Positions 8,396 to 47,694 of a DNA stretch of 64,000 nucleotides are shown in pieces. The stretch spans positions 608,001 to 672,000 of the forward strand of contig CBDHDF010000002.1 of assembly GCA_965261545.1 (NCBI GenBank), given 5' to 3'. The DNA comes from Bdellovibrionales bacterium. Its GTDB lineage: Bacteria > Bdellovibrionota > Bdellovibrionia > Bdellovibrionales > UBA1609. A model generated the notes under the pieces. The model made no database searches and was not told where the DNA came from. It was given only the letters and a program-made list of their open reading frames with translations. A program made the position numbers and the translations under genes. Within the stretch, counting starts at the first letter, position 1. The number at the start of each line of letters is the position of its first letter.

Positions 8396-10408
8396 ATGAA
8401 TAAAACAAAAAATGTATCATCTAAAAACAATTACTTTTACTTTTTATTTAGCTTATCTTTGATTCTTTTTGTGGGTTTAGGTTGCAAGGATCGTTCTAGT
8501 AAAAGACAAGAAAGAAAGCTTGTTGAACCACCCCCCATTGAAAATCCCGTCGACCCTCCCTCTGAATCCTCCCCTGGAAACAGTGAAAACAACACCCCTG
8601 GAAGCAACCCTGGGAACAGTGAAAACAGCAACTCTGAAAATACTGAGAACAACTCTGGTGGTACCACCACTCAAGCGTCCACACTGAGTATCAACGCACA
8701 ATTACCCCCCATTTCTTCAAACAATGTAGGAGCCTACACTGTAGGAGGAACCTGTAATTCAAGCACAACAGAAAGTGTATCTATATTCATTGAAGAACTT
8801 AAAACCAATCCTGTAGAAGTCTCTTGTGATTCCAATTCCTTTACAGGAACAATCGACGCAAGAGGGGTCGTTTCTCAAATAGCTACCATCAAAGTCACCC
8901 ATGGAAATGAGAACACAAGTGCTGAAGTTAATAATAGTATCACTTTTTCTGCGACACTGAAATTTCTATCATTGCCTCCACTTTCTTCCGATAACATGAA
9001 TCAATATATTATAAGTGGAACTTGTGACCCAAGCCTTGGAAATGTCACAATTATTATTGGGAAACCAAATGTAGAAAAAGATTTACCTTGTGATTCAAGA
9101 AATACATTTTTAGGAAATTTGAATGTAGAAAACGTATCATCCCATCCATCTGCTATTCAAGCAAGTCAAACTCAAGGAAGTACAATCGTTTCTTCCATGG
9201 ATAATAATATTAATCTCTTTGTAACAAAATGGAATTTTCCAAGTAATTTTGAATTCACTATACCTCTTAAAAATAAGTCATCATTAAGATATAACTTTAC
9301 TGTGGACTGGGGAGATAATACTAGCGTCAGTGAAGTTACATCTTTCGATGATCCAGATAAAGTACATACCTATCAAAACACCGGAGTATATACAATCAAG
9401 ATCCAAGGCACATGCGAAGGATTCCAAAACACCTTAGAATCCACAAAAGAGCGTTTGCTAGAGGTGGTCAACTTAGGAAATATGGGATGGAAAGATCTCT
9501 CTGAAGCTTTTCAGAGAAATATTTTTCTCTCAAATGTTTTTGGAGGAAATACATCCAATGTCACCAATATGAAGGGCATGTTTAGCTATACTCAAAAGGC
9601 GAATCCAAACACCGAAGGTTGGGACACTTCTAAGGTCACAGATATGTCTTATATGTTTGATATTGCTCAGGGGGCCAACCCAGATACCAGTGGTTGGGAT
9701 ACTTCCAAAGTGACAAATATGGGAGCTATGTTTCGGGTTGCTCAGAAGGCCAACCCAGAGACCAGTGGTTGGGATACTTCTAAGGTCACAGACATGAGAG
9801 CTATGTTTGCTCTGATCTCCAAAGAAGCCAACCCCGATGTCAGTCAATGGAATACTTCTAGGGTCAAAAATATGAGAGCTATGTTTTATGAATCCGTGAA
9901 AGCAAACCCAAATACAAGCCAATGGGATACCTCCAAAGTTTTGGATATGGCAGAGATGTTTTATGGTGCCACTGAGGCGAATCCGGATGTAAGTCAATGG
10001 GATATTTCCGGAGTCCAGGATATGTCATCCATGTTTCACAATGCCACCAATGCAAATCCAGATGTAAGTCAATGGAAGACTGGACTTCTCATGAATGTGT
10101 CAAATATGTTTCACAATGCCAGCAATGCAAATCCAGATACAAGTAGCTGGGCCTTTCCAGTCCTCAGATATCCTTTAGATAATATGTTTCTATCATCAGG
10201 ATTGTCTGTTGAAAATTATTCAAAATTTTTAATAAGTATCAATAAAAGGAAACTTAGAGGTCTTCCTGGCTACTATTCCCCTCCAAGCACTAAGAATATC
10301 AATGTAAACACATTGCAATACAACTCCAGTGCTAAAGCCGCCCGTGAAAGCTTAATAAGTAAAGGGTGGACCATTACAGATGGAGATCTTGAGGAGAATA
10401 GTCAGTAG
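8396..10408 (+). CDS. DUF285/BspA-like repeat surface lipoprotein with P/S/N/E-rich linker
   Basis: Lipobox GLGC; low-complexity linker; two ISGTC-type Ig-like segments; YNFTVDWGD module; WDTSKVTDMxxMF repeats. Confidence 0.85.
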   Translation: MNKTKNVSSKNNYFYFLFSLSLILFVGLGCKDRSSKRQERKLVEPPPIENPVDPPSESSPGNSENNTPGSNPGNSENSNSENTENNSGGTTTQASTLSINAQLPPISSNNVGAYTVGGTCNSSTTESVSIFIEELKTNPVEVSCDSNSFTGTIDARGVVSQIATIKVTHGNENTSAEVNNSITFSATLKFLSLPPLSSDNMNQYIISGTCDPSLGNVTIIIGKPNVEKDLPCDSRNTFLGNLNVENVSSHPSAIQASQTQGSTIVSSMDNNINLFVTKWNFPSNFEFTIPLKNKSSLRYNFTVDWGDNTSVSEVTSFDDPDKVHTYQNTGVYTIKIQGTCEGFQNTLESTKERLLEVVNLGNMGWKDLSEAFQRNIFLSNVFGGNTSNVTNMKGMFSYTQKANPNTEGWDTSKVTDMSYMFDIAQGANPDTSGWDTSKVTNMGAMFRVAQKANPETSGWDTSKVTDMRAMFALISKEANPDVSQWNTSRVKNMRAMFYESVKANPNTSQWDTSKVLDMAEMFYGATEANPDVSQWDISGVQDMSSMFHNATNANPDVSQWKTGLLMNVSNMFHNASNANPDTSSWAFPVLRYPLDNMFLSSGLSVENYSKFLISINKRKLRGLPGYYSPPSTKNINVNTLQYNSSAKAARESLISKGWTITDGDLEENSQ

Positions 10409-10568: not shown

Positions 10569-10619
10569 GTAACATTCATGGGCGTGGGTGGGGAAGCAAG
10601 GCGCCCCCATGAATGTTAC
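10569..10619. mobile_element. 51-bp ends-only mini-element, IS66-like
   Basis: Perfect 14-bp TIR GTAACATTCATGGG; 8-bp TSD GTCTCATT (10561-10568, 10620-10627); right part recurs at ~34342-34371. Confidence 0.82.
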
Positions 10620-10859: not shown

Positions 10860-13220
10860 TTGAAAATAAATCGACTCAAAATCTATCTAAGGTTTATAAA
10901 TAGCCCTACAAGACCCATGGGACTGAAACTTTCTGGTCTCGCTAAACTATCTGGCTTTACTCTCATATCTATGTTGGTGGCCCTTTTCATCATGGGGCTC
11001 TCCCTATCTGTTGTAGTTTCTCTGATGGTTCGTCAGGAACAAGCGTCATTTGTCTTAGATGAAAAAATTGCAATAAATCATTTAAAAGAAAAAATTATTC
11101 GTACAATGACAAACTTCGAGACATGCTCTTGTCAATTTACCACCATGAAGATCAAACTCGATTCAGACAGACCCTCTAGGATCGCTCTAAGTACTCTTCG
11201 AGACAGCTGCGAGACTTCATCTCCAGATAATATTCTTGTGAAGAACAGAGTCCCTATTCTTGGCCTCAAAGGATGGGAGGGAGCACACATCCTCGTTAAC
11301 GATTTTCAAAACATAGGAGGATATCAATACGCAGGAAAGTTTTCGGTATTTTTGAAAAATCGAGATAAAAATTATACATTGAATTTTGTCTCTTTTCCCA
11401 TAGTTGTGGAGTTGGATCCAAGATCTGTAAAAAGAGGGTCGCACTATGAAGTTAAGTTTTGCCGAACCACTAAAAATGTAAAAAAGGAAGCAACAATATG
11501 GGACTGTTTGAACATAGATTCCTTGGCGAATCAGTCTGAAGGGAAAACCCTCTTTGGTTGTGGAGGCACCATAGAGAACTCCCACCCCCATAGCACGTCT
11601 TTTGGCTTTGGTGCGGGAGTATCTTCAGGGGCTGGGGACAATACCTATTTTGGTTATTTCGCAGGAAATGGACACAGTGGGATGAAAAGTACTTTTGTGG
11701 GTTATTCGGGAGGGGAGCTTGCGGGGAGTGCTGTGGCAAACACGGTCGTTGGCTATCATGCGGGAAGGAAGGCCCAAGGTGGGGAGCAGGTTCTTGTGGG
11801 TGTTTCAGCAGGGAAAGAGTCCACAGGAGAGCAAAATGTTATCATAGGAGCCGACGAAGCCGTCCAAAAAGAAAAAGGAAGCAACAGAAGTGTCATTTTA
11901 TCTTACCAGACCGAAGACGAGATTAGCGGGCTAGTGTTTTGGAATTTTAATTATAATCAAGAGGCCCATGACAATGTTATTCTTGGTGGGTTCAATCATG
12001 CATACGGTAATAAGGGTGAAAATGTAACCTTGGGTTACAGATCATGCCAAAATTTTAAAAAAAAGGGTCATATTTGTGTAGGTACATTGGCAGGAGCTTC
12101 TGGAAGTACAAATAATAGAAATATTTTTATAGGTAAGGAGAGTGGGTACTTGAGTGGAGGTGATGACAATATCTTCATAGGTGTTGAGGCGGGTCGAGAC
12201 CAAAGTGATAGAAGTGAGAAGAATGTTTTCTTAGGGTACGGAGCGGGAACTACGAATCAAGACAACGGCTCAGCAAATGCAGACAAAAATACATTCTTGG
12301 GAAATGGCACAGGAAATGGTGGCGGCATTTGGCGCTTTAACACATTGGTGGGGGCAAATATAGGATACACATCTAGTCAGACCATAAAGAATAATGTTGT
12401 TGTAGGTGCTCAAGCGCTTCTCAGAATGAAAGATAACCGTGGGAACGTCGTATTGGGTCATAACTCCCTGAACAATACTCACAAGGATCATACAAATGAG
12501 CATAGTATTTTTATAGGGCAGGGAGTGGAAAGATCATCTGTTGATATGGCCGCTTCTTCTGAATTCGCTGTGGGATCCTCTGACGCCTCAAGGTGGTTGA
12601 CAGGAACGATTGGAAGTGAGCTTTATGTCAATGGTGTTTCGGTGACTCCCCCTGCAAGCTCTCGACGATTAAAGAAAAACATCCATCCGGTGAAGAGTAT
12701 CAAGCAGTATGTAGATAGCCTTATTGAATCACCCCTATTTACCTATCAGTACAAAGATAAGAATCTTCATCCCAAAAAGGTTCGTATGGGATTTATTTCT
12801 GAAGAACTTCCTGAACATTTACAGATCAAGAAAGAAGGACAACTCTCCTATCCGGATTGGCCGAGTATTTATGGGTCTTTCTGGTCGAGTATTCAATATC
12901 TTTATGGTATGTTAAAGAGTTTTCAAGGAGATATCTTCTTTGAGGCAAAGAAATTAGCAGATCATATGCAATCTTTTGAGGACAAGCAAAGTCGTTTTAT
13001 GGAAAAGACCATGGGTTCTAAAAAAGAACTTTTAGAGATGAAGACACACCTCTCCCAGGCGTCCCAAGAGCTTGAGGATACCAAGAAAGATCTTATGGAA
13101 TTGAAAGAAAGCATAAAGAAGAATTGGAAAGAGGTGGAAGAAAGGTTTCCTAAAATGAAAAAATGGGCAAAATCAAAATCAGCATCCATATCTTTAAGTG
13201 ATGGAGTTTTCCATGAATGA
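10860..13220 (+). CDS. Prepilin-leader fibre protein with peptidase S74-type chaperone, subunit A (start uncertain)
   Basis: SG|FTLISMLVAL plus hydrophobic helix; CSCQF Cys motif; NTxxGxxAG repeats; SSRRLKKNI...MGFISEE; C-terminal coiled coil. Confidence 0.8.
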   Translation: MKINRLKIYLRFINSPTRPMGLKLSGLAKLSGFTLISMLVALFIMGLSLSVVVSLMVRQEQASFVLDEKIAINHLKEKIIRTMTNFETCSCQFTTMKIKLDSDRPSRIALSTLRDSCETSSPDNILVKNRVPILGLKGWEGAHILVNDFQNIGGYQYAGKFSVFLKNRDKNYTLNFVSFPIVVELDPRSVKRGSHYEVKFCRTTKNVKKEATIWDCLNIDSLANQSEGKTLFGCGGTIENSHPHSTSFGFGAGVSSGAGDNTYFGYFAGNGHSGMKSTFVGYSGGELAGSAVANTVVGYHAGRKAQGGEQVLVGVSAGKESTGEQNVIIGADEAVQKEKGSNRSVILSYQTEDEISGLVFWNFNYNQEAHDNVILGGFNHAYGNKGENVTLGYRSCQNFKKKGHICVGTLAGASGSTNNRNIFIGKESGYLSGGDDNIFIGVEAGRDQSDRSEKNVFLGYGAGTTNQDNGSANADKNTFLGNGTGNGGGIWRFNTLVGANIGYTSSQTIKNNVVVGAQALLRMKDNRGNVVLGHNSLNNTHKDHTNEHSIFIGQGVERSSVDMAASSEFAVGSSDASRWLTGTIGSELYVNGVSVTPPASSRRLKKNIHPVKSIKQYVDSLIESPLFTYQYKDKNLHPKKVRMGFISEELPEHLQIKKEGQLSYPDWPSIYGSFWSSIQYLYGMLKSFQGDIFFEAKKLADHMQSFEDKQSRFMEKTMGSKKELLEMKTHLSQASQELEDTKKDLMELKESIKKNWKEVEERFPKMKKWAKSKSASISLSDGVFHE

Positions 13221-15840
13221 CCTGGGGCCATGGAGCGTGATGGCCTTAATTTCTCAAAGGGGAATTTCTCTCATATCCTCTTTGATAGCTTTGTTTGTCG
13301 TTAGCATGGGTTCCCTGGCCTTTATCTCTATGCGAGTGGGTCAAGAAAAAGAAGCCCTCGCTTTAAAACAGAAGCTCGCCAATATTCATTTGGAATCCTC
13401 GATCACAGAAGTTTTTTACAATGGTTTTTGTTCTTGTCATTTTGATGCCAGTATCAACAGAATCACTCCTTCAGGGAGTCTTCTCTTGGACACAGCTCAA
13501 CTCAGCAATATAAATTTGGGGGTTATCAGACCAAATTGTGTGTTTAAAAGCAGTAAGACTGATCTTGTAAAGTCCAATACGCGATTGCGAAATGGGGGAG
13601 GTTTGGTGGTGAAGGACATTATGGTGAAAGATTTAATGTCCATAGGATCAAGAGGATCCGTCAATGAGTACTCTGGAAATCTCGTGATAAGCTACAAGGA
13701 ATCCAGTCAGGTACGTCTCCTTGAGCCCATATCTATACCTCTCATTTTTTCTGTGGATCCGACTTCAAAAGCTTTTTCTACCAAAAAACCAATTCAATAC
13801 TGCTGGGAGGAGGGTGTCCATTATGATGATGGGCCTGAATGTCTTCAACTGGGAGAAGACAATGCAATTCTACATTCTGAGAGAACGAGTCTCCTTGGCT
13901 GTGGTGTCACAATAAAATCGACAAAGAAAGAGAAGACAGCCCTAGGCTTTGATGTGGCAGCTCAGAACTGGGGTTCTCAGGGCAAAACAAACGTAAGTGT
14001 GGGTACCTACCTGGGTTTTCAATCTGGGAACCAAACCCCCCGAGATAGAGAGGGGACACAGGAGAAAAATACTTTTTTAGGTTTTAAATCGGGTGATAAA
14101 ATAACGGATTCCGACTTAACTATGATTGGTTATCATTCAACCCCACCCCATGGTGGAGATATTAGCAAATTTGTATGGATAGGAGTGGATATAGGGAAAG
14201 GGAAGAATGATAAGAAGGACGGCTTAAACAGTTATGGTGTCGTGATAGGTAGCCATGCAGGAGAAGTGCCAAATACGCATGCTATCTTTGTGGGAACAGA
14301 GGCTGGACGCAACGCCAACTCAGGGATTATCTTAGGTGATCAAGCGGGACTTCATGCTGCTAATCATGGTAGTGGTTACCATGAGGAGCAAATATTTATA
14401 GGAACTAGAGCCGGCTTGAATCGACGCATCAGAGGTACGAGCCGTGGCCTTCTTCGTACCAACGATGTTATTATTGGCCACGAGGCTGGAGTGAATGTTG
14501 GAACAATTAGGCTTTGGAAAGATAAAATTTATCTTCTTGCGAAAGGAGTTAATAAGGGGGACCCCGTTGTCATGGCGGGAGATCGTATTTTAATCGGTCA
14601 GGGTGCTGGCCAGGCTGGAGGGGGCCTTGGTTTGATGATAGGTTTTGAGGCTGGTCAAAAGGATTTTTCTGGACTCAATTCTTTTGATTATGAGACATAT
14701 ATGAGGGACGGGGTTGAAAGAAATGTAGTAGTTTCTATGAGTTTCTTAATCTTTAAGGATGAAAGTAAAAATGATCATACAATAAATCTAAGTAATACAG
14801 TTCGAGCTTATGGTGCGAATTTCTTTGTGGGCGGGCAGTCAGGCTCCAATTTTATAAGGGGGATGATGAATACTTTTTTAGGTTTTCAATCTGGATATTC
14901 AAAGCTAGGTGGAGACAGTAATACCTATATTGGAGCCTTTGCAGGCTACAGTGATGGCACAGATTCACATTCACATAACAATACCTGTATCGGTTGGAAA
15001 TCTTGCTATGCCAACCAAGGGAGTGTGACGATGCCCTTTTCTTTGCCTTCTGGCATAAAGGTTGTTGCCTGGCGTCAGGATGAGGAGTCAATTCGAACAG
15101 GAAGCAAGAACACCATCCTCGGGGCCCTTGCTGGAAAGGCGAATATCCATGGTTCTCACAATATACTTATTGGCAAAGGAGTGGGATCTTCAGCGATGTA
15201 TAGCGATATTAATAATAAATTCATGGTGGGCACTGAAAATAACCAAGAATGGTTGAGCGGAGATATCAATGCAACATCAACACTGTCAGTCAACGGGGCA
15301 GCTTTAACCACCCCAAGTTCAAGGGCCTTGAAGAAAAATATAGTTCCTGTGAAGAATTTTAAAAAATACCTTCAATCTATACTGGAAACTCCACTTTTTA
15401 CTTATCAATACAAAGAGTTGAACCTCCACCCCGACAAAGTGCGTATGGGTGTTATTTCTGAGGAACTTCCTAAATACTTACAAATCAAACAGAAGGGAAG
15501 ATTGTCTCGTCCTGATTGGCCAAGTATCTATGGGGTTTTTGCAGCCAGTATCAAGTGGATTTATGAATCGACCATGACTCTTGAGAAAACCATGCTCACC
15601 AAGTTGAATGAATTTATGAACTCATTGGATCAACTTGAAAGAGGGTATAAAAATATGAAGAAAGATGTTGATAGATGGATGAAAACTATAAATGTGACAA
15701 AAAATCATATCAAGCAATCTAAAAAGGTGATCAAAGAAATGAGAGGTGAAATATCAAAGACAAAATCTTACACACAAAGAAAATGGGAAGAACTCATAGG
15801 CGATGATCCACGAGAAGATAAAGGTGAGTCCCATGAATAA
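13213..15840 (+). CDS. Prepilin-leader fibre protein with S74-type chaperone, subunit B
   Basis: ATG at 13213 after GGAG, overlapping the upstream stop (ATGAATGA); RG|ISLISSL; CSCHFD; SSRALKKNI...MGVISEE. Confidence 0.8.
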   Translation: MNDLGPWSVMALISQRGISLISSLIALFVVSMGSLAFISMRVGQEKEALALKQKLANIHLESSITEVFYNGFCSCHFDASINRITPSGSLLLDTAQLSNINLGVIRPNCVFKSSKTDLVKSNTRLRNGGGLVVKDIMVKDLMSIGSRGSVNEYSGNLVISYKESSQVRLLEPISIPLIFSVDPTSKAFSTKKPIQYCWEEGVHYDDGPECLQLGEDNAILHSERTSLLGCGVTIKSTKKEKTALGFDVAAQNWGSQGKTNVSVGTYLGFQSGNQTPRDREGTQEKNTFLGFKSGDKITDSDLTMIGYHSTPPHGGDISKFVWIGVDIGKGKNDKKDGLNSYGVVIGSHAGEVPNTHAIFVGTEAGRNANSGIILGDQAGLHAANHGSGYHEEQIFIGTRAGLNRRIRGTSRGLLRTNDVIIGHEAGVNVGTIRLWKDKIYLLAKGVNKGDPVVMAGDRILIGQGAGQAGGGLGLMIGFEAGQKDFSGLNSFDYETYMRDGVERNVVVSMSFLIFKDESKNDHTINLSNTVRAYGANFFVGGQSGSNFIRGMMNTFLGFQSGYSKLGGDSNTYIGAFAGYSDGTDSHSHNNTCIGWKSCYANQGSVTMPFSLPSGIKVVAWRQDEESIRTGSKNTILGALAGKANIHGSHNILIGKGVGSSAMYSDINNKFMVGTENNQEWLSGDINATSTLSVNGAALTTPSSRALKKNIVPVKNFKKYLQSILETPLFTYQYKELNLHPDKVRMGVISEELPKYLQIKQKGRLSRPDWPSIYGVFAASIKWIYESTMTLEKTMLTKLNEFMNSLDQLERGYKNMKKDVDRWMKTINVTKNHIKQSKKVIKEMRGEISKTKSYTQRKWEELIGDDPREDKGESHE

Positions 15841-18256
15841 TGTTTCTCAAGAACATTATGGCTTTGCCATGGTTTCCGCGCTCTTATTTATTTTTCTTAT
15901 GGGTCTATCTATGTTGTCTTTTTTATCCAAGGTTAATATGAGGGATAAAGACAACCTTGGTTTAGCTAAGGATATTCGAAAGCAGCGTGTTGAGTTATCT
16001 GTTAAAAAAATGATGAATCATAAGAGATGCCTATGTCATTTTGATCCAGCACAAAATACTTCAGTTTCTGTACCACTGGGAATTGATACAGTGAATTTTC
16101 ATGATATTCCATTGGGCATCATAAGAAAAGATTGTGATTTTAGTTCCTCCGATAATGTTCTTATTCAAAATGGAAGTGCTTTGGGCAAAGGTTTTGCGGT
16201 CGATAAAATCAAGGTGACGAACCTTAGGGGCCAACGAGGCTCCTACCGATCCTATTTGGGGGAAATTCTCATCACTTATTCAAGCCAAAACAATAGAGAA
16301 AGACCCCCTTCCCCCTCTTCGATTCCCCTCGTTTTTGTCGTTAACGACAATATGGGAACGGATGAAAACCGACCTGTTTTGTCCTGTTGGAGCGCTGCTT
16401 ACTCAACTCCTAAAGAGTTGGCATTATTTGATGAATCTTGTTACTTTGTAGATGAAGAGGCCGATACGACGCAGGATCCAGATGCGAAGTCGAAGGGTCG
16501 GATTCTTGTGGGCTGTGAGGGAACCGTAGGTACCACAAATGCCCCTCGCCCTCCAACGACCACGGCCTTTGGATTTCAGGCTGGAAAATCTCTCACGGAT
16601 CCTGCCCATATAGGAAATACTTATTTTGGGTATCAAGCAGGAATGAATCACCAAGGAGATAAAACCACAATGATAGGTTACATGGCAGGTAAAATGTCTG
16701 ATTCTGCAAAAAGTATAAGTGTACGAAAAAGTAATTTTATTGGATATCGTGCAGGGGAGTCTTTGATCGAGGGTGAAAATTTACATTTTGTGGGAGCCGA
16801 GGCCGGTCTCAATACAGTGGTGGCCAACAATAATATTTTTGTGGGTGCTTCGGCGGGGAAGAACCACACCAAGGGAAATAGGAATGTGTTTTTGGGTTAT
16901 GCAGCGGGGAGAGATGGTTTTCCAGATCCTGCATCCAGTGACACCATCGATGACAATATTCTTGTGGGATATAAGGCGGGGTTAAAGAACAGGGGAGATC
17001 GAAATATTTTTATTGGCTCTCAGGCGGGAGAGGCCAATATAGATGGTTCAGGTTCTGTGGTGATGGGTTTTCAATCAGGTCAGAAAAATAGTTCCATCGA
17101 CAAGAGTGTTCTTATAGGATATGAGGTGGGAAAGAAGAGTCAAGGAGGTGAATACTCCGTGTTTATAGGTCATAGGGCTGGAAGAGAAAATACAGGAGAT
17201 AAAAATACATTTGTAGGTAATTCTTCTGGGTTGAAGAATAAAAGTGGCCAAGAGAATGCTTTTTCAGGGCATGAATCAGGTAAATCCAATACCACGGGTT
17301 CACAAAATACTTTTATTGGAGCTTCTGCGGGGCAGAAGAACACATCGGGTTCCTACAATACTTTTGTAGGAAAAGAGGCAGGGGCTGCCAATACGACAGG
17401 GGATGCAAACACCATGATTGGTATGCAAGCAGGGGCTCAGAATACCACAGGAAGCAATAATATATATATAGGGTTTGGTGCTGCCAATATCAGTGACACC
17501 GATACTTATAAGACGGGTAGCAATCAATTTGTTGTTGGTAATAGTACGAATAAAACTTGGTTGACGGGAGAGATGACTTTCACAGGGGATCTTTTTGTGG
17601 AGGTGGGGGGGGCCAAGATCAAAGCCGGGTCGGCTGCAAGTTCACGTTTTCTGAAAAAGAATATTCGGCCTGTCACCGACTTTAGGAAATACTTAGATGA
17701 TATCTTAGATACTCCTCTTTTTACATATCAATATAAGGACCCCATGAATCACCCCCATAAGACACGCATGGGAATTATCTCTGAGGAACTGCCCGAGCAT
17801 TTACAAATCAAAAGCAAGGTACGAATTCTTGATGGTATCACAGATGAAATATCCCGTCCCGATTGGCCCAGTATCTATGGCTATTTTTGGGCTGGTCTCA
17901 AGGCTCTCCATCAAATAAAAACAGAGTTGGAAGAAGATCTTCTTTCAAAGATTCAAGATTTTCTCTCTCGGATTCAATCCATCAAGGAGAAGCAAGTTCG
18001 CTTTATTGAGGTATGGACCCAGAATAAAAAAGAAATGTCATCGATTCAATCCAAGCTCCATCAGGTGAATCGAGAAATGGAGCAGGTCCAACGGGAAATC
18101 GTCAAGACAAGAAAGGATTTTGATAGGGATTGGGAGGAATTGATGGCAAGAATTTCTTCCTCCCGGTCGGCTTCTTCTTCTATGCCACCCCCACCTTCAC
18201 TCTCGTCCTCGGCTTCTTCTTCTGTGCGCCCCTACCCACCTTCGTCATCACCATGA
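15833..18256 (+). CDS. Prepilin-leader fibre protein with S74-type chaperone, subunit C
   Basis: ATGAATAA overlap with B; YG|FAMVSALL; CLCHFD; regular NTTGxxNTFxG repeats; SSRFLKKNI; Ser/Pro tail. Confidence 0.8.
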   Translation: MNNVSQEHYGFAMVSALLFIFLMGLSMLSFLSKVNMRDKDNLGLAKDIRKQRVELSVKKMMNHKRCLCHFDPAQNTSVSVPLGIDTVNFHDIPLGIIRKDCDFSSSDNVLIQNGSALGKGFAVDKIKVTNLRGQRGSYRSYLGEILITYSSQNNRERPPSPSSIPLVFVVNDNMGTDENRPVLSCWSAAYSTPKELALFDESCYFVDEEADTTQDPDAKSKGRILVGCEGTVGTTNAPRPPTTTAFGFQAGKSLTDPAHIGNTYFGYQAGMNHQGDKTTMIGYMAGKMSDSAKSISVRKSNFIGYRAGESLIEGENLHFVGAEAGLNTVVANNNIFVGASAGKNHTKGNRNVFLGYAAGRDGFPDPASSDTIDDNILVGYKAGLKNRGDRNIFIGSQAGEANIDGSGSVVMGFQSGQKNSSIDKSVLIGYEVGKKSQGGEYSVFIGHRAGRENTGDKNTFVGNSSGLKNKSGQENAFSGHESGKSNTTGSQNTFIGASAGQKNTSGSYNTFVGKEAGAANTTGDANTMIGMQAGAQNTTGSNNIYIGFGAANISDTDTYKTGSNQFVVGNSTNKTWLTGEMTFTGDLFVEVGGAKIKAGSAASSRFLKKNIRPVTDFRKYLDDILDTPLFTYQYKDPMNHPHKTRMGIISEELPEHLQIKSKVRILDGITDEISRPDWPSIYGYFWAGLKALHQIKTELEEDLLSKIQDFLSRIQSIKEKQVRFIEVWTQNKKEMSSIQSKLHQVNREMEQVQREIVKTRKDFDRDWEELMARISSSRSASSSMPPPPSLSSSASSSVRPYPPSSSP

Positions 18257-18379: not shown

Positions 18380-18709
18380 AATGTGAGTATTGTGAACTGT
18401 TCTCATTATGAATGTTACAGTAGTTCCTGTCCAGGGAAGAAAGTTAAGTAGTTTTAAGTATTTACATGCCTTCCCTTTAGATTTTATGCTTTAAAATGGA
18501 GTCCATCAAACATAATCCGTGTAAATTCAGTTACTTACATAAAACGGAAAAATAAAATAAGTTCCCCCCCCCCCTCCTCTCTCTTGACGAACCTTTCACA
18601 GCCCCTCCCTTTCAGTGACTTATGTGGCTATCAACTACGTTACTTGATATGAGAGGAAGAGTTGGATCAACCTGTGTTTCCACCGTGGTGATTTCAAACC
18701 TCCTTCAGA

Positions 18710-20550: not shown

Positions 20551-23104
20551 CAATGGCATTCGTTTAGTGAGAGATCCCATTCGGTTAAGGATTTGAACCT
20601 CTAACTCCTCGGGGGTGGGCTAACCCCAAGTTTTTTTCTTTGATCCATGTGATTATCCGTTGGCCATAGCCCCCCTAACCTCTTTACTGGGTCTCCATAC
20701 TCCGATGGGTTTTCTAGAAACTCGGTCGTAATGCCTATTCGGACGTAGCCTTTGTCGGCAGGTCTTCATATTTGTAATGATGCAATTGAGGGTTTTACTA
20801 AGCACTACCTTTTGTTGAAGAAAAAGACCTTCAATATTTCTTGCAATTGTCAGTAAATTGTTTTTAAAGTTTTTCTGCATGGTTTGTTTTTTACTATGGG
20901 ATTGAGATGTATTAAGACGGTCTTCCGTGTAGTTGGAAAATAATCTTGTCAGAGTGATAAGTGTGAAGTGTGCAAACAATTCTTGTTTGACTCCCCTTTC
21001 ACTTTGAGAATGAAACTCTTCAATGGTCATCAGTTCTTTGGATATTTTGTACAGTTCCTCTATACTCCAGCGTCCATGATAGAGATTGGCCAGATCATCA
21101 ATGGAATATTTTTTTTGATCCATTAAGGTTGTTCCTAGAACAAAAGTAGTTTGTCCAATTTTATATTTGACCAAACGCAAAGCGTAGGCTTTGAAGTCGT
21201 CTTGTGGCTTTTTTTTATGTAGTTCTTTCAGAATTTGCTTGCTAGGAATGACTTGGATCACTGAGTCTTTTTGATCATTATTAATAAATTCATCAAAAAC
21301 AGTGTTGGCATTTCTCCTTATCCTAAACACCGCATGCAGACTTCGCACCTTATGCTCATGAAGCATTTCGTAGGAATAATAGCCACGATCATAAACCACA
21401 ACATCGTTTTCAAACAATTTTTTGAAATGAGTTTGTGCAGCCTTTCTCTCATTGTTATGGGCAAAGAGATCAAAATCCACAGGAATCTTCGACTGTAGTT
21501 GGTACAGGCAACTGACAAGACCTTGAGGGTACCATGCTTTTTCCCATGGTTGCTGATACCCATTATCTACGAGTTGACGTGGTAAATTTATTTTCGATCC
21601 ATCCACTGCGAAAACCTTATGGCCCTTCCATAAGGTACTAGAATTGGATATACCGTCTTGTTTAAGAATTTCATCATGCAAAACTTTAAATATATTTTCA
21701 TCTACTTTAGCCCGTGCACTACACATAGTGGATGCCCGAACTGTTTTAGGTTGAGGGAGTTCAATGTCTAATATGCGACACTGCTCCCAAAGTTCAATCA
21801 AAGTTGTATCATAACCTTGTTTTCCTTTAGAGAAAACAAGTCGGAAGATGAAAAGTATAATCAACAATGTATTCAAGACACGTTGACGCTTTTGCCAGGT
21901 TCGGTCGTACTCATCTGCAATGATAACCACTGTCTTGATGATGTTTTGCCAAAGATGCACAAAAGAGTCCTCTAGCATAGGCTCAGCCAAGTTCTTATGT
22001 GGCTTGATGGTGGGTTTCCCGACGGGTTTCTTGATAGCGCATTGGGGGCCATTCAATAAGATAGACTGATAATTCTTTGTCAGAGGTTGAACATAAACAC
22101 CTTTTTGAGTTTTTCCCTTTACATTTTTGTAGGCACGACTCCCATTTGTTTTGCCCAAATAAAGCCAGTTGGCAGCACGATAGCTCGTGGCATTAAATTT
22201 GGTAAGGTCGACAAAAGTCTCCATGAGTACAGGTTTGAAAGCATGTTTTAACTCCCAGTCTGTGGGAAGTTGGCGAGTTGCCATAGATAAAGCCATCGAA
22301 GCAAGATGGCGAACCTTTACCCAGGGAAAGATCAAAAATCGACTATTGTTCACCACTAAATTCAAGTGCTTTTTGTAAGCTCGATTTTGCCAACCGATCC
22401 ATTCATCACGGCAAGGCAAAGTGGATGTGCCAGCTTCAAATAAAAGACAACCCAATCTTCGCCCACAATTATCTAAGATGAAATAGCGTAAGTGGGGACC
22501 AAAGGGACGTCTGTAATTGAGATAATGATGCCGATCGACAACTTCATTCCATTCCTTAATGGCCTCTTGATCAGTTACGATTTGCAAAGAAAGTGGGGTC
22601 AATGAGTCTAGTTTATCGTTGATGAGAGGCTTTTCATCTGTTCGGTGTGTCCAAGTGATTTTTTTGGAGGGGACACTCCGCTTTGACATGTCTTTTTCTG
22701 GCAGGGATAGAATGTCAAGTTCCTCTAGCGTCTCAAGCATACGAAGGCACGATTGGATGCGATGATCACCTTTGGGAGTTAGCCAACCAAGATGCTCACA
22801 AACTGTATAACCCAGTTCACGGCGACTTAAAGAAGGAAATAGCGCCACCGTCTTTTGAATGTCGGCAATTTGCTTGCGCGTCAAGCGTCTTCCAAAAAAA
22901 GTTGTTGAAGGCAATGTCTCTATGCGTGGGTCCATTTGAGTCTCTCCCCTTTGGGAATGGTTCAAATATAATGTGACACAACGATGGGGTGGACTCAAGT
23001 ATTTTTTTTCGGAAAAAGAAAAAAGATAAAAGCCCCCTTAACTCAGTATGTTAGAGGGAGTCAGAAAAATGTGGAAAAATCTTCTGCAAAAACGAATGCC
23101 ATTG
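20551..23104 (-). mobile_element. IS4-family element with DUF4338-fused transposase
   Basis: Perfect TIR CAATGGCATTCGTTT / AAACGAATGCCATTG; no TSD visible. Confidence 0.85.
20653..22935 (-). CDS. DUF4338 domain plus IS4 DDE transposase fusion
   Basis: N-terminal HHYL..RDEWIGW..NNSRFLIFPW..ETFVD..YRAANW; C-terminal AVDGS, YDRGY, YHGRWSIEELYK (YREK-type motif). Confidence 0.85.
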   Translation of the reverse strand: MDPRIETLPSTTFFGRRLTRKQIADIQKTVALFPSLSRRELGYTVCEHLGWLTPKGDHRIQSCLRMLETLEELDILSLPEKDMSKRSVPSKKITWTHRTDEKPLINDKLDSLTPLSLQIVTDQEAIKEWNEVVDRHHYLNYRRPFGPHLRYFILDNCGRRLGCLLFEAGTSTLPCRDEWIGWQNRAYKKHLNLVVNNSRFLIFPWVKVRHLASMALSMATRQLPTDWELKHAFKPVLMETFVDLTKFNATSYRAANWLYLGKTNGSRAYKNVKGKTQKGVYVQPLTKNYQSILLNGPQCAIKKPVGKPTIKPHKNLAEPMLEDSFVHLWQNIIKTVVIIADEYDRTWQKRQRVLNTLLIILFIFRLVFSKGKQGYDTTLIELWEQCRILDIELPQPKTVRASTMCSARAKVDENIFKVLHDEILKQDGISNSSTLWKGHKVFAVDGSKINLPRQLVDNGYQQPWEKAWYPQGLVSCLYQLQSKIPVDFDLFAHNNERKAAQTHFKKLFENDVVVYDRGYYSYEMLHEHKVRSLHAVFRIRRNANTVFDEFINNDQKDSVIQVIPSKQILKELHKKKPQDDFKAYALRLVKYKIGQTTFVLGTTLMDQKKYSIDDLANLYHGRWSIEELYKISKELMTIEEFHSQSERGVKQELFAHFTLITLTRLFSNYTEDRLNTSQSHSKKQTMQKNFKNNLLTIARNIEGLFLQQKVVLSKTLNCIITNMKTCRQRLRPNRHYDRVSRKPIGVWRPSKEVRGAMANG

Positions 23105-24222: not shown

Positions 24223-26562
24223 ATGAAGATAATTATATGTTTATGTTGGCTCTATTCTTTTAAATTCCTTAAAGCGTGGGTGAATTTTGCCATTGGACTT
24301 TATATTTTTATTTTCTTAAGAACAAAAGCATCTGGTTTTTCTCTTATATCCATGCTCATAGCTCTTTCTATCATGGGTTTTTCCATGACGGCTCTTATTT
24401 CCCTTATGGTAAACCATGAAAAAGGCAACCTGACTTTAAATAGAAAAATGGAAAATATTCGCCTCAAAAACAATTTGATAAGAACGATAAGGGATACAGA
24501 TATATGTTCTTGTCATTTCACTTCTTCTAGAGCCACTGCCATCAATTTAGATACAAAGGGCTTAGGGGATATCACAATGGCCTCCATTCGAAGAAGCTGC
24601 GACTTTTCATCTTCCTCTAATATTCTCTTCAAGAGTGGAGCCTTTGTTCCTGGAAGCAATCAATTGAGAGTAGCTAGCATCAAGGTCACAGGCATTAAGT
24701 TTACTGGAACAAAAAATCAATATTGGGGAAATCTCACGGTCAATTATAACCAAGATAGTTTGTCTTCAATTCTTTCACCTATTTCTGTTCCCTTTACTTT
24801 CTCTGTGGACGGGACCTCAGGAACAGAGAGTGCTCGTCCCATTCAATCCTGTTGGAATACGTCAGTGGTGCAAATTCAACAGCAAGATAATAATTGTATG
24901 ACTGTGGATCCAGCAGGGCCGGAGACTAAAGGGAGAACTCTTTTGGGGTGTGGGGGAACTTCTAATGCTTCCCACAAACATAGTACGGCCTTTGGTTATG
25001 CTGCTGGGGTTTCTTCAGGAAGTGGTAATAACACTTATCTTGGTTATCGTGCGGGGACTCAACACAGTGGAAGCCAAAGTACTTTTGTGGGATACAAAGC
25101 AGGGGAGTCCGCAGGTAATGCTTCATCCAACACAGTGGTGGGATCTCATGCAGGAAGACTTGCAACAGGGGGGGAGCAGGTTCTTATAGGAATTGAGGCA
25201 GGGGAAAAGTCCACTGGAAATAAGAATGTTTTTGTAGGATACCAGACGGGGCAAAGAAATACTAGTGGAAGTAGAAATGTAGCGTTCGGTAACTCTGCAG
25301 GACGAAACAATAGCAAAAATCACGACAATGTGCTATTGGGCCATAATGCCTTTTCCCATAATTCCTTTTCATATTATGGTGACGGGAGCGAAAATGTTGT
25401 TGTGGGTGAAAGTTCGGGTCTCAGCAGCCGAAGAAGTCGAGGCATTTTTATTCAATCAAAAGGATTCGGGACGTTTCGAAATCTTGCTATAGGTGAGTTA
25501 TCAGGAGGACACGGATCAGATAATGTGGCCATAGGTTATAAGGCAATGGGTAGTAGGAAGCAGACTGCTGGCTTCAAAAATGTTGCAGTAGGACAGTGGG
25601 CTGGAAGGAACAAAACAAAAGGTGATGAAAATACTTATGTAGGATTTAGGGCAGGAGAGTCTGGTAACGGATCCAACGTTAATGAGAATACAGCTATAGG
25701 CTCATTTGCCATGATAGGGAATGTGGGTGGCAAGAAAAATGTCATGTTAGGTTTTTCGGCAGCAGAGAAATCACCTTATGGTAATGGGAATGTTTTGGTG
25801 GGCGCTGGAGCTGGGAGGTTTCTTTCTCTGAAAAATGATAGTATTTATATAGGCGATTCGGTAGCCACTACGGGTAGCACTAAAAATTCTCAATTCATTG
25901 TGGGTGTTTTGTCGTATCTAATTATGAAGCCAAGAATTTGGATAAGAGGAACCATGACTCCAACAGGCAATCTTTATATTAATGACCAGCAAGTTGCTAT
26001 AACAAGTTCTCGACACTTGAAGAAGAATCTACGTCCCGTGAGGGATGTAAAAAAATATGTGGATCATCTCATCAAAACACCCTTGTTTACCTATGAGTAC
26101 AAAAGTAAGAATCTTCATCCTAAAAAGAATCGTATGGGATTTATATCTGAGGAGCTCCCTGAAAGCCTACAGCTTAGGAGCAAAGGTCAACTGTCCCATC
26201 CCGATTGGCCAAGTATTTATGGATATTTTTGGGCAAGCATTAAGTATCTTTACGATATGTTGGAAGGCATTAGGAAGATACTCAATGTTGAAGTGAACAA
26301 AATGAAGAATCACATAAGCCTTTTTCAAGCAAAGCACGATCGATGGTTGAACAAGACCATGGCTTCTAAGCAAGCGATTGCATATCTTAGTACTCACTTA
26401 TCTCAAGTATCCCAAGAGCTTGAAGATTCCAAGCGAGATCTTAGGGAACTCAAAAGGGATATAAAAGAGCAGTGGGAAGAAATAGAGAAACAGTTTCCTG
26501 GTGGATGGGTGCTATCGAGCTTAGAAGTCAGGGAGTTTAGTGATGGGGCTCAAAATGAGTAA
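24223..26562 (+). CDS. Prepilin-leader fibre protein with S74-type chaperone, subunit A' (start uncertain)
   Basis: SG|FSLISMLIAL; CSCHF; shares GCGGT..HST.FG and GGEQVL with 10860-13220; SSRHLKKNL. Confidence 0.8.
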   Translation: MKIIICLCWLYSFKFLKAWVNFAIGLYIFIFLRTKASGFSLISMLIALSIMGFSMTALISLMVNHEKGNLTLNRKMENIRLKNNLIRTIRDTDICSCHFTSSRATAINLDTKGLGDITMASIRRSCDFSSSSNILFKSGAFVPGSNQLRVASIKVTGIKFTGTKNQYWGNLTVNYNQDSLSSILSPISVPFTFSVDGTSGTESARPIQSCWNTSVVQIQQQDNNCMTVDPAGPETKGRTLLGCGGTSNASHKHSTAFGYAAGVSSGSGNNTYLGYRAGTQHSGSQSTFVGYKAGESAGNASSNTVVGSHAGRLATGGEQVLIGIEAGEKSTGNKNVFVGYQTGQRNTSGSRNVAFGNSAGRNNSKNHDNVLLGHNAFSHNSFSYYGDGSENVVVGESSGLSSRRSRGIFIQSKGFGTFRNLAIGELSGGHGSDNVAIGYKAMGSRKQTAGFKNVAVGQWAGRNKTKGDENTYVGFRAGESGNGSNVNENTAIGSFAMIGNVGGKKNVMLGFSAAEKSPYGNGNVLVGAGAGRFLSLKNDSIYIGDSVATTGSTKNSQFIVGVLSYLIMKPRIWIRGTMTPTGNLYINDQQVAITSSRHLKKNLRPVRDVKKYVDHLIKTPLFTYEYKSKNLHPKKNRMGFISEELPESLQLRSKGQLSHPDWPSIYGYFWASIKYLYDMLEGIRKILNVEVNKMKNHISLFQAKHDRWLNKTMASKQAIAYLSTHLSQVSQELEDSKRDLRELKRDIKEQWEEIEKQFPGGWVLSSLEVREFSDGAQNE

Positions 26563-28894
26563 GCCTAGGCTACCACGGAGAACGATGATATTATTATCTC
26601 CAAGGGGAATATCTCTTGTATCTGCCTTGGTAGCTATGACTGTAATTGGTATGGCTGCACTTTCTTTTGTCTCCATGGAAGTGAGTCAAAAAAAAGAAAG
26701 TATTCTTTTAAAGCAAAGGCTCACTCATATTGGTTTGGAATCATTTATAACACAGACCTTGTATACGGGAACTTGCTCCTGTCACTTTGACCCTACTGTG
26801 AATACGTCAGCAGCTGCGGGGACACTCAATCTTAATACAAGTACATTGGCTGATATTAATTTGCAATCCATACGAACAGGCTGTGCGTTTAGTAGTGATG
26901 ACAATGTAATTCTAAAGGTCAACAAGGAGGTTCCTGACAGTGTAGGTCTTATTGTGAGCCGCATTGCTGTCAAGAATTTAACACCCACAGGAAGCACCGA
27001 TGAATACTCTGGAAATCTTGTTGTCAACTACACGAAATCGAGCCAAAAGCGTCTCCTCAATCCCATTTCTATACCCCTCATTTTTTCTATTGATTCCACA
27101 TTGGGAACTCCCTTGGCAAGGTCCATTCAATCTTGTTGGAAAGATAAATTGACACAAGATCAATATCCTCCTGAATGTGCTCAAATGACGGGGGATGGCC
27201 AGAAGAATCATCTTGTGGGGTGTCAGATATCACAGCCCCCCTTTTACGGAAATACAACACTTGGCTTTAACTCGGGAGTGACGGGGCAGTTTGATTGGAA
27301 TAGAAAAGGAACCAGCTTAGGCTTTCAGGCCGGGAAAGGAAAGTATATAGGCCAAGAGCGAGGGTACCTGAGTTCTTCTGAGAATACTCTCTTAGGTTTT
27401 AAGTCAGCCAATAGATTTGGAGGTGGTCGCCGTTTAACTCTCATTGGTCCTCAATTCATAGGTCCGGTTATGGCTAATGGGGCCCCTAACAAGACAGATG
27501 AAGCAACATTGATTGGTTTGAATATGGGACGTGACTATGTTCTAAGTACAAGGGCGACTGTAGCTATAGGCACTGATTCGGGACGAAACCCCTCAAAAAA
27601 ATTTCTCGCCGTTCATAAGTCTCTTTTTATTGGCACTAGTACTGTTGGCAACGGTCACCAAGATCCCCGCCAAACGATCATAGGTTACCAGGCAAAGGCA
27701 AGGCCAAAGATCGAGAATATCTCTGAGACCACATCCATTGGAACGCAAGCAAAATCAAAGTATGGAATATCTATTGGTCACAATAGTGGGAATAATTCTT
27801 CAAGAGGCCTTTTCATCGGTAGTGGTGCTGGAAAAAATACACTTATTGAGAACGTGCTGGCAATTGGTTTTGAAGCATCTCCAAAACAGCAGTCTACTGG
27901 AGATTATAATACTTTTTTAGGTGCAAGATCGGCTCATAACTTTGTGGGTGGGGGGCCACCTGGATCCTTTGTCTATGCCTATCATTTGAGTTCTGGATGG
28001 AATACTGCTTCCATCGCTGGGGATGGGGCGAGGAATGTGTTTATCGGTGCTGACTCTGGGCTTTCGCTGGTATCTGGAGGCTACAATCTCTACGTAGGTG
28101 CTTCTTCAGCTTCTTATGTTGTCCATAGCAGCAAGAATGTTTGTATAGGTTGGAATTCTTGTAAAAAAGCCACAACTTCCATAGGAGGTAATACCATAAT
28201 AGGAGCTGATGCTGGAACGGGAATTGGTGGGCGTAGCAATATATATATTGGTTATGGCGTGGGAAAAGCAGGAACTCATCAGAGTCATTATGATGATCGA
28301 TTTGTGTTGGGAACCCACAATCGTGACCAATGGCTGAATGGATCAATGGATATACTTTCAACACTTTATGTCAATAACAGGCCGCTAAACACAGCAAGTT
28401 CAAGGGCTTTAAAGAAAAACATAGGCTCTGTAATGAATCTTAAAAAATACTTTCAATTTATACTAAAAACCCCTCTCTTTACCTATCAATACAAAGATCC
28501 CAGTCGTTATCCTGACAAAATACGCATGGGTGTGATCTCTGAGGAGCTTCCTAACTATTTGCAAATTAAAAAAGAAGGGGAACTCTCTCAACCCGATTGG
28601 GTAAGTATCTATGGACTCTTTGCGGCCAGCATTAAATGGATATACAACTCTATCATAATTTCCGAGAAAATTGCGTTTGATAAAGTGAAAGCATTCACAG
28701 ATTTATTAATTGACCTTGGACAGAATGACAAGAATATGAATGCGGATATGGATCAATGGACTAAAGATTTTGCCATAGCAAAGAATCATATCCATACTTC
28801 GAAAAGTAAGATGAAAAAAGTAAGAGGTCAAATATCAGATGTGAGAAATTATATAAGGAAAAAATGGAAAATTTTTTATGATCAGAGTCAATAA
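26555..28894 (+). CDS. Prepilin-leader fibre protein with S74-type chaperone, subunit B'
   Basis: ATGAGTAA overlap; RG|ISLVSAL; shares EYSGNLV, NxCIGWxSC, SSRALKKNI and FAASIKWIY with 13213-15840. Confidence 0.8.
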   Translation: MSKPRLPRRTMILLSPRGISLVSALVAMTVIGMAALSFVSMEVSQKKESILLKQRLTHIGLESFITQTLYTGTCSCHFDPTVNTSAAAGTLNLNTSTLADINLQSIRTGCAFSSDDNVILKVNKEVPDSVGLIVSRIAVKNLTPTGSTDEYSGNLVVNYTKSSQKRLLNPISIPLIFSIDSTLGTPLARSIQSCWKDKLTQDQYPPECAQMTGDGQKNHLVGCQISQPPFYGNTTLGFNSGVTGQFDWNRKGTSLGFQAGKGKYIGQERGYLSSSENTLLGFKSANRFGGGRRLTLIGPQFIGPVMANGAPNKTDEATLIGLNMGRDYVLSTRATVAIGTDSGRNPSKKFLAVHKSLFIGTSTVGNGHQDPRQTIIGYQAKARPKIENISETTSIGTQAKSKYGISIGHNSGNNSSRGLFIGSGAGKNTLIENVLAIGFEASPKQQSTGDYNTFLGARSAHNFVGGGPPGSFVYAYHLSSGWNTASIAGDGARNVFIGADSGLSLVSGGYNLYVGASSASYVVHSSKNVCIGWNSCKKATTSIGGNTIIGADAGTGIGGRSNIYIGYGVGKAGTHQSHYDDRFVLGTHNRDQWLNGSMDILSTLYVNNRPLNTASSRALKKNIGSVMNLKKYFQFILKTPLFTYQYKDPSRYPDKIRMGVISEELPNYLQIKKEGELSQPDWVSIYGLFAASIKWIYNSIIISEKIAFDKVKAFTDLLIDLGQNDKNMNADMDQWTKDFAIAKNHIHTSKSKMKKVRGQISDVRNYIRKKWKIFYDQSQ

Positions 28895-32090: not shown

Positions 32091-33365
32091 TGTTAGGCGC
32101 CAATTAAAATTGGCCATTTTTAGAAGCCGTCGCCAATGAAAAACGGAAGGTAGCCTTTAAAAATCAGTCGATCTGGACAAGTTAAGGTTTCTGAGATTTC
32201 TTCCGAGTGTTTTGATATAAATTTTTCTATAGTCTCATGTCGGAACGCTCCTTCATGGGACTTTTTTTGTTTTTTTAACTGGACTTAGAGTTTAAGACTT
32301 TTCTCTTGGTTCTGGCTCCGCCAGGTTAGAGATATTACGCAAGAAATTGAGCACATATTTGTGAGCTTTGAAGGTCACTGAAAATAAGATTAAGATTGAG
32401 GAGCGATGGACTCATTCTTGCATATATCTGTTGTATGAAATATATGAAGTCAAGTGAGTGTGGAGCCAAGCCCGGATGGGGGCCAAGTGAAATCGATGAA
32501 TGGAGCCCGGAGGGGAGGAGGTTTTAATGTCAGATAGTGCTAAAAAAATAACCCCTGAAGTTGTGTGGGAGCTTATGGGAGAGTTGGCAAAATCTCAACA
32601 GGAGTTGGCAAAATCACAAGAAGAGACAGATCGCTATTTGAAAGAGGTATTCAAGGAGTCCGAACTTCAAAGGAAGGAGGCCGAACTTCAAAGGAATAAG
32701 GCGTCCAAGGAGTCCGAACTTCAAAGGAAGGAGGCTGAACTTCAGCGGAAAGAGACAAATCTCCAGCAAAAAGAGGTAGATCGTCGCTGGGAGGAGACGG
32801 GTCGTTATTTGAAAGAGATATCCAGAAAGGCAGATCTTCGGCAGGCCCGTTTGGAAAAAAGAATGAAAGAACTTAACAAATTGTTTACGGGACAATGGGG
32901 GAAGCTCATAGAAAGTCTTGTCAAAGGTGATCTGGTAAGGCTCCTCAATGAAAGGAATATACAGGTCATGGGACTTGCCCAAGAAAGCTTTCGCCGGCGA
33001 AACAACACAGATTATGAGATTGATATCATTGCCGTCAATGGGAGGGAGGTTGTGGCTGTGGAAGTGAAAACTACTTTAAAAAATCAGCACCTCGATCACT
33101 TTATAGAAAAGCTCAAAATATTTAGAGATATTTTTCCAGAGTACAAAGACAAGACGATTCATGGTGCCATTGCTTATTTAAGGGCTGATGAAGGGTCTCA
33201 TAACAAGGCTGAAAAAGAAGGTCTTTTTGTGATTCGAGCCACGGGCAATAGTGCGACTATTACAAATCAAAAAGAATTTTCTCCTCGGGTGTTCTAGCTC
33301 GGAGGGGCGGAAGCCCTCTCCACTTTTCATTGGCGACGGTGGGGCATTTTAATTGTCAGTTAACA
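32091..33365. mobile_element. Non-autonomous IS21-ended cassette with passenger gene
   Basis: 32091-32146 is the exact reverse complement of 2048-2103; 33324-33365 is a related end finishing TAACA; no transposase between; no TSD. Confidence 0.7.
32527..33297 (+). CDS. Coiled-coil plus PD-(D/E)XK nuclease-like protein (DUF3782-like)
   Basis: GGAGGAGG RBS; ELQRKE repeats; WGKLIE...EIDIIAVN...AVEVKTTL. Confidence 0.75.
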   Translation: MSDSAKKITPEVVWELMGELAKSQQELAKSQEETDRYLKEVFKESELQRKEAELQRNKASKESELQRKEAELQRKETNLQQKEVDRRWEETGRYLKEISRKADLRQARLEKRMKELNKLFTGQWGKLIESLVKGDLVRLLNERNIQVMGLAQESFRRRNNTDYEIDIIAVNGREVVAVEVKTTLKNQHLDHFIEKLKIFRDIFPEYKDKTIHGAIAYLRADEGSHNKAEKEGLFVIRATGNSATITNQKEFSPRVF

Positions 33366-33417
33366 ATTGAAATGGGAAAATAAAAAAGATAGAATTTCAA
33401 AAAAAGGAATAAAATCA

Positions 33418-47676: not shown

Positions 47677-47694
47677 ATTGAAAAATATCATTGT

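Follow-up and report, generated by a model that had tools for sequence, protein, structure and literature searches.

The DNA analysed here is a stretch of 64,000 nucleotides (nt) from a Bdellovibrionales genome (the window), and it carries on its + strand three consecutive, overlapping genes whose products join a pilin-like N-terminus, a Gly-rich repeat shaft of the tail-fibre kind, a Peptidase_S74 chaperone domain and a long helix. We found that this set of three genes is one of four such triplets in the genome, and that the first, second and third genes (A, B and C) fall into three separate clades. The strict keeping together of the three genes suggests one mixed three-chain fibre, and we consider that A, B and C probably co-assemble as a single heterotrimer, although we hold this with some reserve. 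As to its display at the tip of a pilus, the arguments are nearly balanced, with the doubts slightly heavier.

Ordered triplets of overlapping genes

All coordinates are positions in the window, and T1 and T2 denote the first and the second triplet in it. T1 was listed as three + strand open reading frames (ORFs), 10860-13220, 13198-15840 and 15803-18256, of which the first is likely to start at ATG 10917. The genes are paralogs, the other two being 29% and 33% identical to the first, and the mean column identity of their alignment is 54%. As a first-pass annotation of this DNA had noted, they are consecutive and both junctions are 8-nt overlaps, ATGAATGA and ATGAATAA, if ATG 13213 and ATG 15833 are the starts. 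Earlier in-frame starts at 13198/13201 (gene B) and 15803 (gene C) may make the overlaps longer, but they are present either way. In an independent assembly of the same sample, a 7089-base contig matches 10591-17679 without a difference and spans both junctions, and thus the arrangement in T1 does not stem from an assembly error. A scan for promoters and terminators gave 26 against 18.5 +/- 4.2 in shuffles, which is not above the shuffles. The public runs listed, four from one sample, included none with RNA. The genes of the two triplets are as follows.

10917..13220, + strand: T1 gene A, 767 amino acids (aa) from ATG 10917, the ORF opening at TTG 10860; leader Gly 10953-10955; mature pilin-like domain from 10956 to about 11561 (sixth Cys); shaft of 17-residue repeats, about 11562-12656; S74 Ser 12657; S74 domain to about 12881; helical tail to 13217; Peptidase_S74 23.2 bits; N_methyl 17.7 bits (hmmscan) and 21.5 bits (genome scan)
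13213..15840, + strand: T1 gene B, 875 aa from ATG 13213; 8-nt overlap with A; leader Gly 13261-13263; sixth Cys about 13900; S74 Ser 15316; Peptidase_S74 22.9 bits
15833..18256, + strand: T1 gene C, 807 aa from ATG 15833; 8-nt overlap with B; leader Gly 15860-15862; sixth Cys about 16514; S74 Ser 17639; helical tail, then a Ser/Pro-rich end; Peptidase_S74 24.6 bits
24223..26562, + strand: T2 gene A, clade A; N_methyl 20.8 bits; Peptidase_S74 15.8 bits, below the cut-off
26540..28894, + strand: T2 gene B; 8-nt overlap with A if the start is ATG 26555; Peptidase_S74 22.3 bits
28878..31169, + strand: T2 gene C; 17-nt overlap with B; Peptidase_S74 24.3 bits

A hidden Markov model (HMM) was built from six of the proteins and run on all 4943 ORFs of at least 100 aa in the genome. 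It found 12 full-length members, and all of them lie within four ordered triplets, two in the window and two on contig C7. The gene junctions overlap in 8/8 cases, by 1 to 43 nt depending on the choice of start. In the tree of the 12 proteins, the first, second and third genes separate into clades A, B and C, each supported at 100/100, and the branching within clades A and C is identical, their two trees being congruent. When the tree was extended to 43 family members, each of the three clades included three proteins from other metagenome contigs. This result means that the triplet is old and that it has been copied as a unit. By matching contig base counts, one A (P0011), one B (P0126) and one C (P0005) were assigned to the same contig of 114398 bases, A and C to a contig of 31157 bases, and A and B to a contig of 91099 bases; further relatives lie on contigs of 261474, 125988 and 28290 bases. 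The third members on the two latter contigs may have been missed by the searches.

Other searches returned few relatives. The scan of metagenome contigs matched 139 pattern stretches, none of which was a relative; a word search with residues 1-260 of B recovered this genome's paralogs only; a profile word search was dominated by Gly-rich fibre proteins and gave no further triplet members; and the scan of a viral contig collection gave only one weak locus. When 40 genomes from the same family or order were searched, none gave a match to gene C at E <=1e-20. A third apparent trio in the window, at 43589-50169, was rejected, as it consists of uvrB, uvrC and an unrelated ORF. The 824-aa ORF downstream of uvrB and uvrC (47695-50169, + strand) had no family match above threshold.

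Outside the triplet clades, the relatives are single genes. A scan of one genome per species found five loci in four metagenome-assembled genomes (MAGs) named 'Bdellovibrionales bacterium', with one family gene per locus. In the tree of 43, which has a midpoint root only, these single-gene relatives form a separate outer clade, and some of them have a canonical prepilin sequence, G/FSLLE or G/FSLVE, with Glu5 in 6/13. Up to about six scattered single-gene proteins of the pilin-fibre-S74 type were seen in G041 and G043, two MAGs of about 2 Mb reached through loci L013 and L016. A variant occurs in a Bdellovibrionales MAG (L014:9119-11290), where a collagen-like Gly-Pro-Pro stalk replaces the 17-residue repeats between the pilin-like domain and S74. 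Judged from these sequences, single genes are likely the older state. Therefore, the likely history is that a single-gene and presumably homotrimeric pilin-fibre-S74 protein was triplicated, and that the whole triplet was then copied.

Architecture of the three proteins

The same layout is common to all three proteins: a short leader ending in Gly, a hydrophobic helix of about 25 residues, a six-Cys domain, repeats, Peptidase_S74 and a long helix. The first-pass annotation was right in its domain calls (pilin-like N-terminus, tail-fibre-like shaft, Peptidase_S74), and the leader, cysteines, repeats, SSxxLKKN motif and coiled coil that it had listed from T1 were confirmed, as described below. 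Its suggested HMM scans gave a divided result for T1, in which Peptidase_S74 (Pfam PF13884, gathering score 22 bits) was reported above the cut-off for all three genes, whereas N_methyl (Pfam PF07963, cut-off 21.2 bits) stayed below it by hmmscan, with 17.7 bits for A and none reported for B and C.

At the N-terminus, a class III-like leader with Gly at position -1 followed by at least 22 hydrophobic residues is found in 12/12 members of this genome. With the metagenome relatives added, Gly at -1 is present in 20/21, and the exception (P0042) is N-terminally truncated. The six Cys (CxC, RxxC, C, C, GC) are placed in a domain of about 180 residues and are invariant in 12/12 members of the genome and in 21/21 when the metagenome relatives are included, consistent with a periplasmic or extracellular protein. 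The N_methyl scores in clade A were 17.7, 20.8, 21.4 and 22.8 bits by hmmscan (2/4 pass) and 21.5-28.2 bits in the genome scan (4/4 pass). An AF2 model of the mature N-domain has a helix at residues 2-50 and then a beta-sheet, with a mean pLDDT (predicted local distance difference test) of 71 and a core pLDDT of 70-93. When this model was compared by VIA-align, pilins or pseudopilins made up 12/39 of the top rows (best Z 4.2), including GspK, EpsI, XcpW, PilA and PilB of S. sanguinis, ComZ, FimA, CofA, FimT, PilA4 and MshA.

The N-domain is not restricted to the fibre proteins. Its profile matched 1258 proteins at E <=0.001 among 1.84 billion representatives, and most of the best 150 of these were 200-450 aa long, hence stand-alone. 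Wherever a name exists in this family, the annotation is prepilin-type or PilV-like; N_methyl was reported in 11 of 28 matches scanned and was above the cut-off in three. The closest named ESM Atlas clusters are Bdellovibrionota proteins, one of them a 'PilV family', with N_methyl on 24-43% of members, but their scores of 0.85-0.89 make them a lead only. Of 301 genomes sampled from the phylum, 26 have the N-domain, this genome included, and the matches outside this genome were in open frames of 232-648 aa, so that they have no fibre fusion. Nine shorter ORFs of this genome also carry the domain. One such stand-alone pilin-like gene (L025:6001-7017) lies directly upstream of a reverse transcriptase (RVT_1, L025:7155-8015).

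The shaft contains about 20 repeats of 17 residues per protein. The motif [hydrophobic]-G-x-x-[AS]-G occurs 7-18 times per protein, compared to at most 0.9 in shuffles, with a spacing of mostly 16-17 residues, and the shaft matches PHROG families of tail spike, virion structural and tail fiber proteins. The repeat units pair one to one between clades A, B and C in the alignment. Shaft lengths of A and C differ by at most 6 residues in 6/6 sets, and B has loop insertions. In T1, several such insertions give gene B the longest shaft of the three (472 residues from the sixth Cys to the Ser), and gene C has the most regular repeats (15 motif matches) and the best PHROG matches (E 2e-28).

Position 1 of the Peptidase_S74 profile falls on the sequence S-S-x-x-x-K-K-N, which is invariant in 12/12 members of this genome. 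Half of the 12 members, including all T1 genes, reach the cut-off, and the remaining six score 15.8-20.8 bits at the same site. In the fibres described for Bdellovibrio bacteriovorus, the S74 catalytic motif is given as SDxxxK (PMC10769870). In the present family, the S74 Ser and the Lys five residues on are retained in 12/12 members of the genome and in 43/43 tabulated sequences, with the Asp replaced by Ser. The motif is followed by a conserved block of about 75 residues (PLFTYQYK, RMGxISEELP, PDWPSIYG) and then by the long helix. A Trp after PDWPSIYG is kept in 35/35 non-B sequences having the motif, but is replaced in 6/7 clade-B proteins, by Ala in gene B of T1, and all four B proteins of this genome have a Trp five residues downstream of the lost position.

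The tail was modelled as a monomer with AF2. The helix at residues 108-201 was obtained with a pLDDT of about 90, and the S74 part was poorly modelled (pLDDT 47-67). The top Foldseek rows for this model were the MyRF ICA domain and the intramolecular chaperones of endosialidase and GA-1 (7dc3, 3gw6 and 3gud), none of them significant (E of 0.24 to 1.0); chaperone-domain entries stood at ranks 1, 3, 5, 6 and 15. Searches of the PDB by sequence and by tail profile returned coiled coils only and nothing for the S74 part.

Proposed assembly and rival explanations

The best explanation that we can offer, and one that we think has an even chance, is that the T1 genes encode modular pilin-like proteins, each with a class III-type leader, a hydrophobic alpha1, a small, disulfide-bearing globular domain of pilin-like type, a shaft of beta-helix repeats resembling those in phage tail spikes and in the Bdellovibrio fibres, and S74 with a long helix. 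Under this scheme, coupled translation would bring equal amounts of A, B and C into the inner membrane, where a prepilin peptidase, for which the genome has two candidate genes, would presumably cut off the leaders. Once in the periplasm, single chains of A, B and C would come together through their S74 domains and helices, which would thereby choose chains and register; the shaft would then be zipped from the C-terminus, and S74 would remove itself at the conserved Ser. The three unlike pilin-like heads might serve as an asymmetric starting layer for a type IV filament, either a pilus or a pseudopilus, the machinery of which would be encoded elsewhere, and the fibre would be carried outward as a tip adhesin, most simply as the filament cap. 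Four paralogous triplets could then provide four alternative tips. In its strictest form, with an obligate A-B-C fibre, a heterotrimeric S74 chaperone, the heads as a staggered first layer and four interchangeable triplets as a tip repertoire, the proposal is tentative and, on balance, rather doubtful. If it is true, the A-B-C heads would reconcile the three-fold symmetry of the fibre with the helical build of the pilus.

Genes that could serve such a filament are present in the genome. There are two Peptidase_A24 genes, one of them at C7:492158-492487 and neither near the triplets, together with 11 T2SSE matches and eight T2SSF domain matches in five open frames. Among these are a pilB-pilT-pilC-like cluster on contig C10 and, on contig C11, a Gsp-like cluster that contains four N_methyl genes.

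The main rival explanation is that A, B and C make three separate homotrimeric fibres, which would be three tip adhesins, and that the triplet is a tandem array copied together by chance. All biochemical precedent is on its side, because S74 chaperones are the textbook quality control for homotrimers and, to our knowledge, every S74 protein characterised so far is a homotrimer. The S74 fibres of B. bacteriovorus are likewise described as homotrimers (PMC10769870). Several of our own results also weigh against a mixed fibre. The four MAGs hold 1 to about 6 scattered single family genes each, so each chain of the triplet would derive from an ancestor that assembled with itself, and may still do so; all three chains retain the catalytic Ser and Lys; a charge-complementarity test on the helical tails of A, B and C showed no pattern; and the co-location of clade members on other contigs was read from equal contig base counts, which give no gene order. 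However, paralogs that work independently should have undergone losses, gains or changes of order, and yet 4/4 sets in this genome have all three genes in one constant order, with overlaps. All three clades are old and have diverged together, and clade B is without a Trp that is invariant elsewhere. Separate homotrimers do not explain why the set was never broken, and we regard them as unlikely. The proposal of a 1:1:1 heterotrimer in the first-pass annotation thus gains comparative support from the four ordered triplets, the separate clades with outside sequences, the overlaps at every junction and the one other contig with all three clades, although, of the outcomes that it had named as refuting, one is half borne out: the distant homologs are single and arbitrary in number, yet they form a separate outer clade.

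A second doubt concerns the pilus. The N-terminus might be a signal anchor that is not cleaved, or what is left of a degenerate pilin, and a trimeric fibre might be held at the inner membrane or given to another export route. All of the 20 triplet-clade proteins with a readable mature N-terminus have Ser or Ala at position +5 instead of Glu5, which is the hallmark of assembling pilins. N_methyl scores are below the cut-off for B (12.7-16.1 bits), and none is reported for C. As the first-pass annotation had remarked of the window, no pilus genes or other assembly machinery were found there, and none of the pilus genes lies beside any of the four triplets. The N-domain model had no Foldseek match at E <=0.001, and its pilin fold matches are weak (Z <=4.2). 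Although these results all speak against display on a pilus, the Gly at -1 has been kept wherever the N-terminus is complete, some outer-clade relatives have the full canonical prepilin motif, and the N-domain family bears prepilin-type or PilV-like names. Moreover, a membrane-anchored fibre in a diderm would presumably need such a machine to reach the surface. We therefore consider a role outside any pilus improbable. It is far less probable still that the genes are tail fibre genes of a prophage, a tailocin or a contractile injection system. The PHROG tail spike and virion structural matches and the S74 chaperone, which is typical of phage fibres, would fit such an origin, but no phage genes are beside any of the four loci, and the prophage reading was rejected on this ground. 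In addition, the pilin-like N-terminus and six-Cys domain are common to stand-alone pilin-like proteins of many bacteria, as the 1258 profile matches indicate, and the viral contig collection gave the one weak match only.

Known systems and genomic surroundings

The closest known fibres are the mosaic adhesive trimer (MAT) fibres of B. bacteriovorus. They are described as homotrimeric, with or without S74, and as having a Sec signal peptide and an N-domain of unknown anchor, and their authors suggest a possible interplay with type IV pili (PMC10769870). The S74 subgroup of MAT (for example Bd3182) shares with the present proteins the phylum, a long beta-helical fibre, a self-cleaving S74 with S-x-x-x-x-K and a proposed role in cell recognition, but in the account of that paper (PMC10769870) MAT genes are scattered and have a beta-rich N-domain of about 130 aa, in contrast to the pilin-like N-terminus, triplets and long helix after S74 found here. 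Judged against the MAT description, the pilin-like N-terminus makes strict membership of the MAT family doubtful. If the favoured heterotrimeric tip fibre is real, it would provide an example of how predatory bacteria can anchor MAT-like fibres and move them outward. It would also link two subjects kept apart in the Bdellovibrio field, namely tail-fibre-like adhesins of unknown anchor and the type IV pili needed for prey entry.

The fusion of a pilin with S74 is not new in itself. In the catalogue of Raynaud et al., pilin-S74 (IPR012902-IPR030392) is one of the 15 commonest architectures of modular pilins and is read as a peptidase function (PMC8179133). Modular pilins such as PilB of Streptococcus sanguinis resemble the present proteins in that a functional module, expected to sit at the tip, is grafted onto a pilin module (PMC8179133). 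However, the passages on pilin-S74 in that paper treat no fibre, trimerisation or triplets (PMC8179133), and the proteins described here are without Glu5 and mostly under the N_methyl cut-off. A full-text literature search turned up no publication on either a triplet of the pilin-fibre-S74 type or a heterotrimeric fibre with S74. Hence the first-pass remark that no description of the arrangement was known holds only in part, as the architecture was already catalogued, whereas the triplet organisation and the heterotrimer reading appear to be new. If the reading is correct, the pilin-S74 class of the catalogue would represent a fibre-folding device and not a peptidase activity, and the conserved three-paralog set would be the first heterotrimeric S74 case and a natural system for the study of chain choice and register.

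A precedent for three unlike heads is the GspK-GspI-GspJ complex at the pseudopilus tip of type II secretion (PDB 3ci0), in which three different pilin-like proteins form one staggered tip complex. Chain 3ci0_K and its relatives are among the best, though weak, fold matches of the N-domain model, and GspK lacks Glu5. Unlike the triplet, this complex has no fibre or chaperone, and its three members are not closely related paralogs. Type IVb pili are capped by the trimeric minor pilins CofB and TcpB, which are homotrimers with genes inside the pilus operon and have neither S74 nor a repeat shaft. Their likeness to the present proteins lies in a pilin module with trimerising C-terminal domains and in a presumed tip trimer that starts assembly (PMC8179133). 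For pilus biology, the triplet would offer a candidate tip complex whose adhesin is made of the very polypeptides that also act as its three priming pilins. On the chaperone side, the phage endosialidase and tail spike chaperones (3gw6, 3gud) and the MyRF ICA domain (7dc3) share the Peptidase_S74 profile match and the Ser/Lys pair, but these proteins are homotrimers, and their N-termini attach to the virion or belong to a transcription factor.

The neighbours of the triplets are insertion sequence (IS) elements and large surface proteins with DUF285 (PARCEL repeat) and PKD domains. The latter are up to 2232 aa long and adjoin T1 and T4; they may have a functional link to the triplets or may simply be an abundant family. 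Their genes are as follows.

2620-4617, - strand: DUF285/PKD gene
5818-7656, - strand: DUF285/PKD gene
8396-10408, + strand: DUF285/PKD gene
L020:4450-6213: DUF285/PKD gene
L021:662-11432: DUF285/PKD gene

Upstream of T1, a palindromic repeat (GTAACATTCATGGG...CCCATGAATGTTAC) is located at 10569-10619, and an IS3-like element lies downstream at 18421-18700. In the contigs of the sample, the depth of both is 15-30 times that of the triplet. A contig in which 10619 runs on into 18421 has just 25 letters on one side of the join; this join and the raised depth probably reflect copies of the repeats elsewhere and not a deletion. Between T1 and T2, an IS4-type transposase is fused to a DruA-like domain (20653-22998, - strand), and a second copy (L027:2794-5139) lies beside a stand-alone pilin-like gene on C10. 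After T2 and an IstB fragment, a gene with a weak Hjc resolvase match (32500-33297, + strand) is next to a Fic/DOC protein gene (33367-34248, + strand). Further downstream, a 546-aa protein (39336-40976, + strand) has cytidine deaminase and MafB19-like deaminase matches and may be a toxin-type deaminase.

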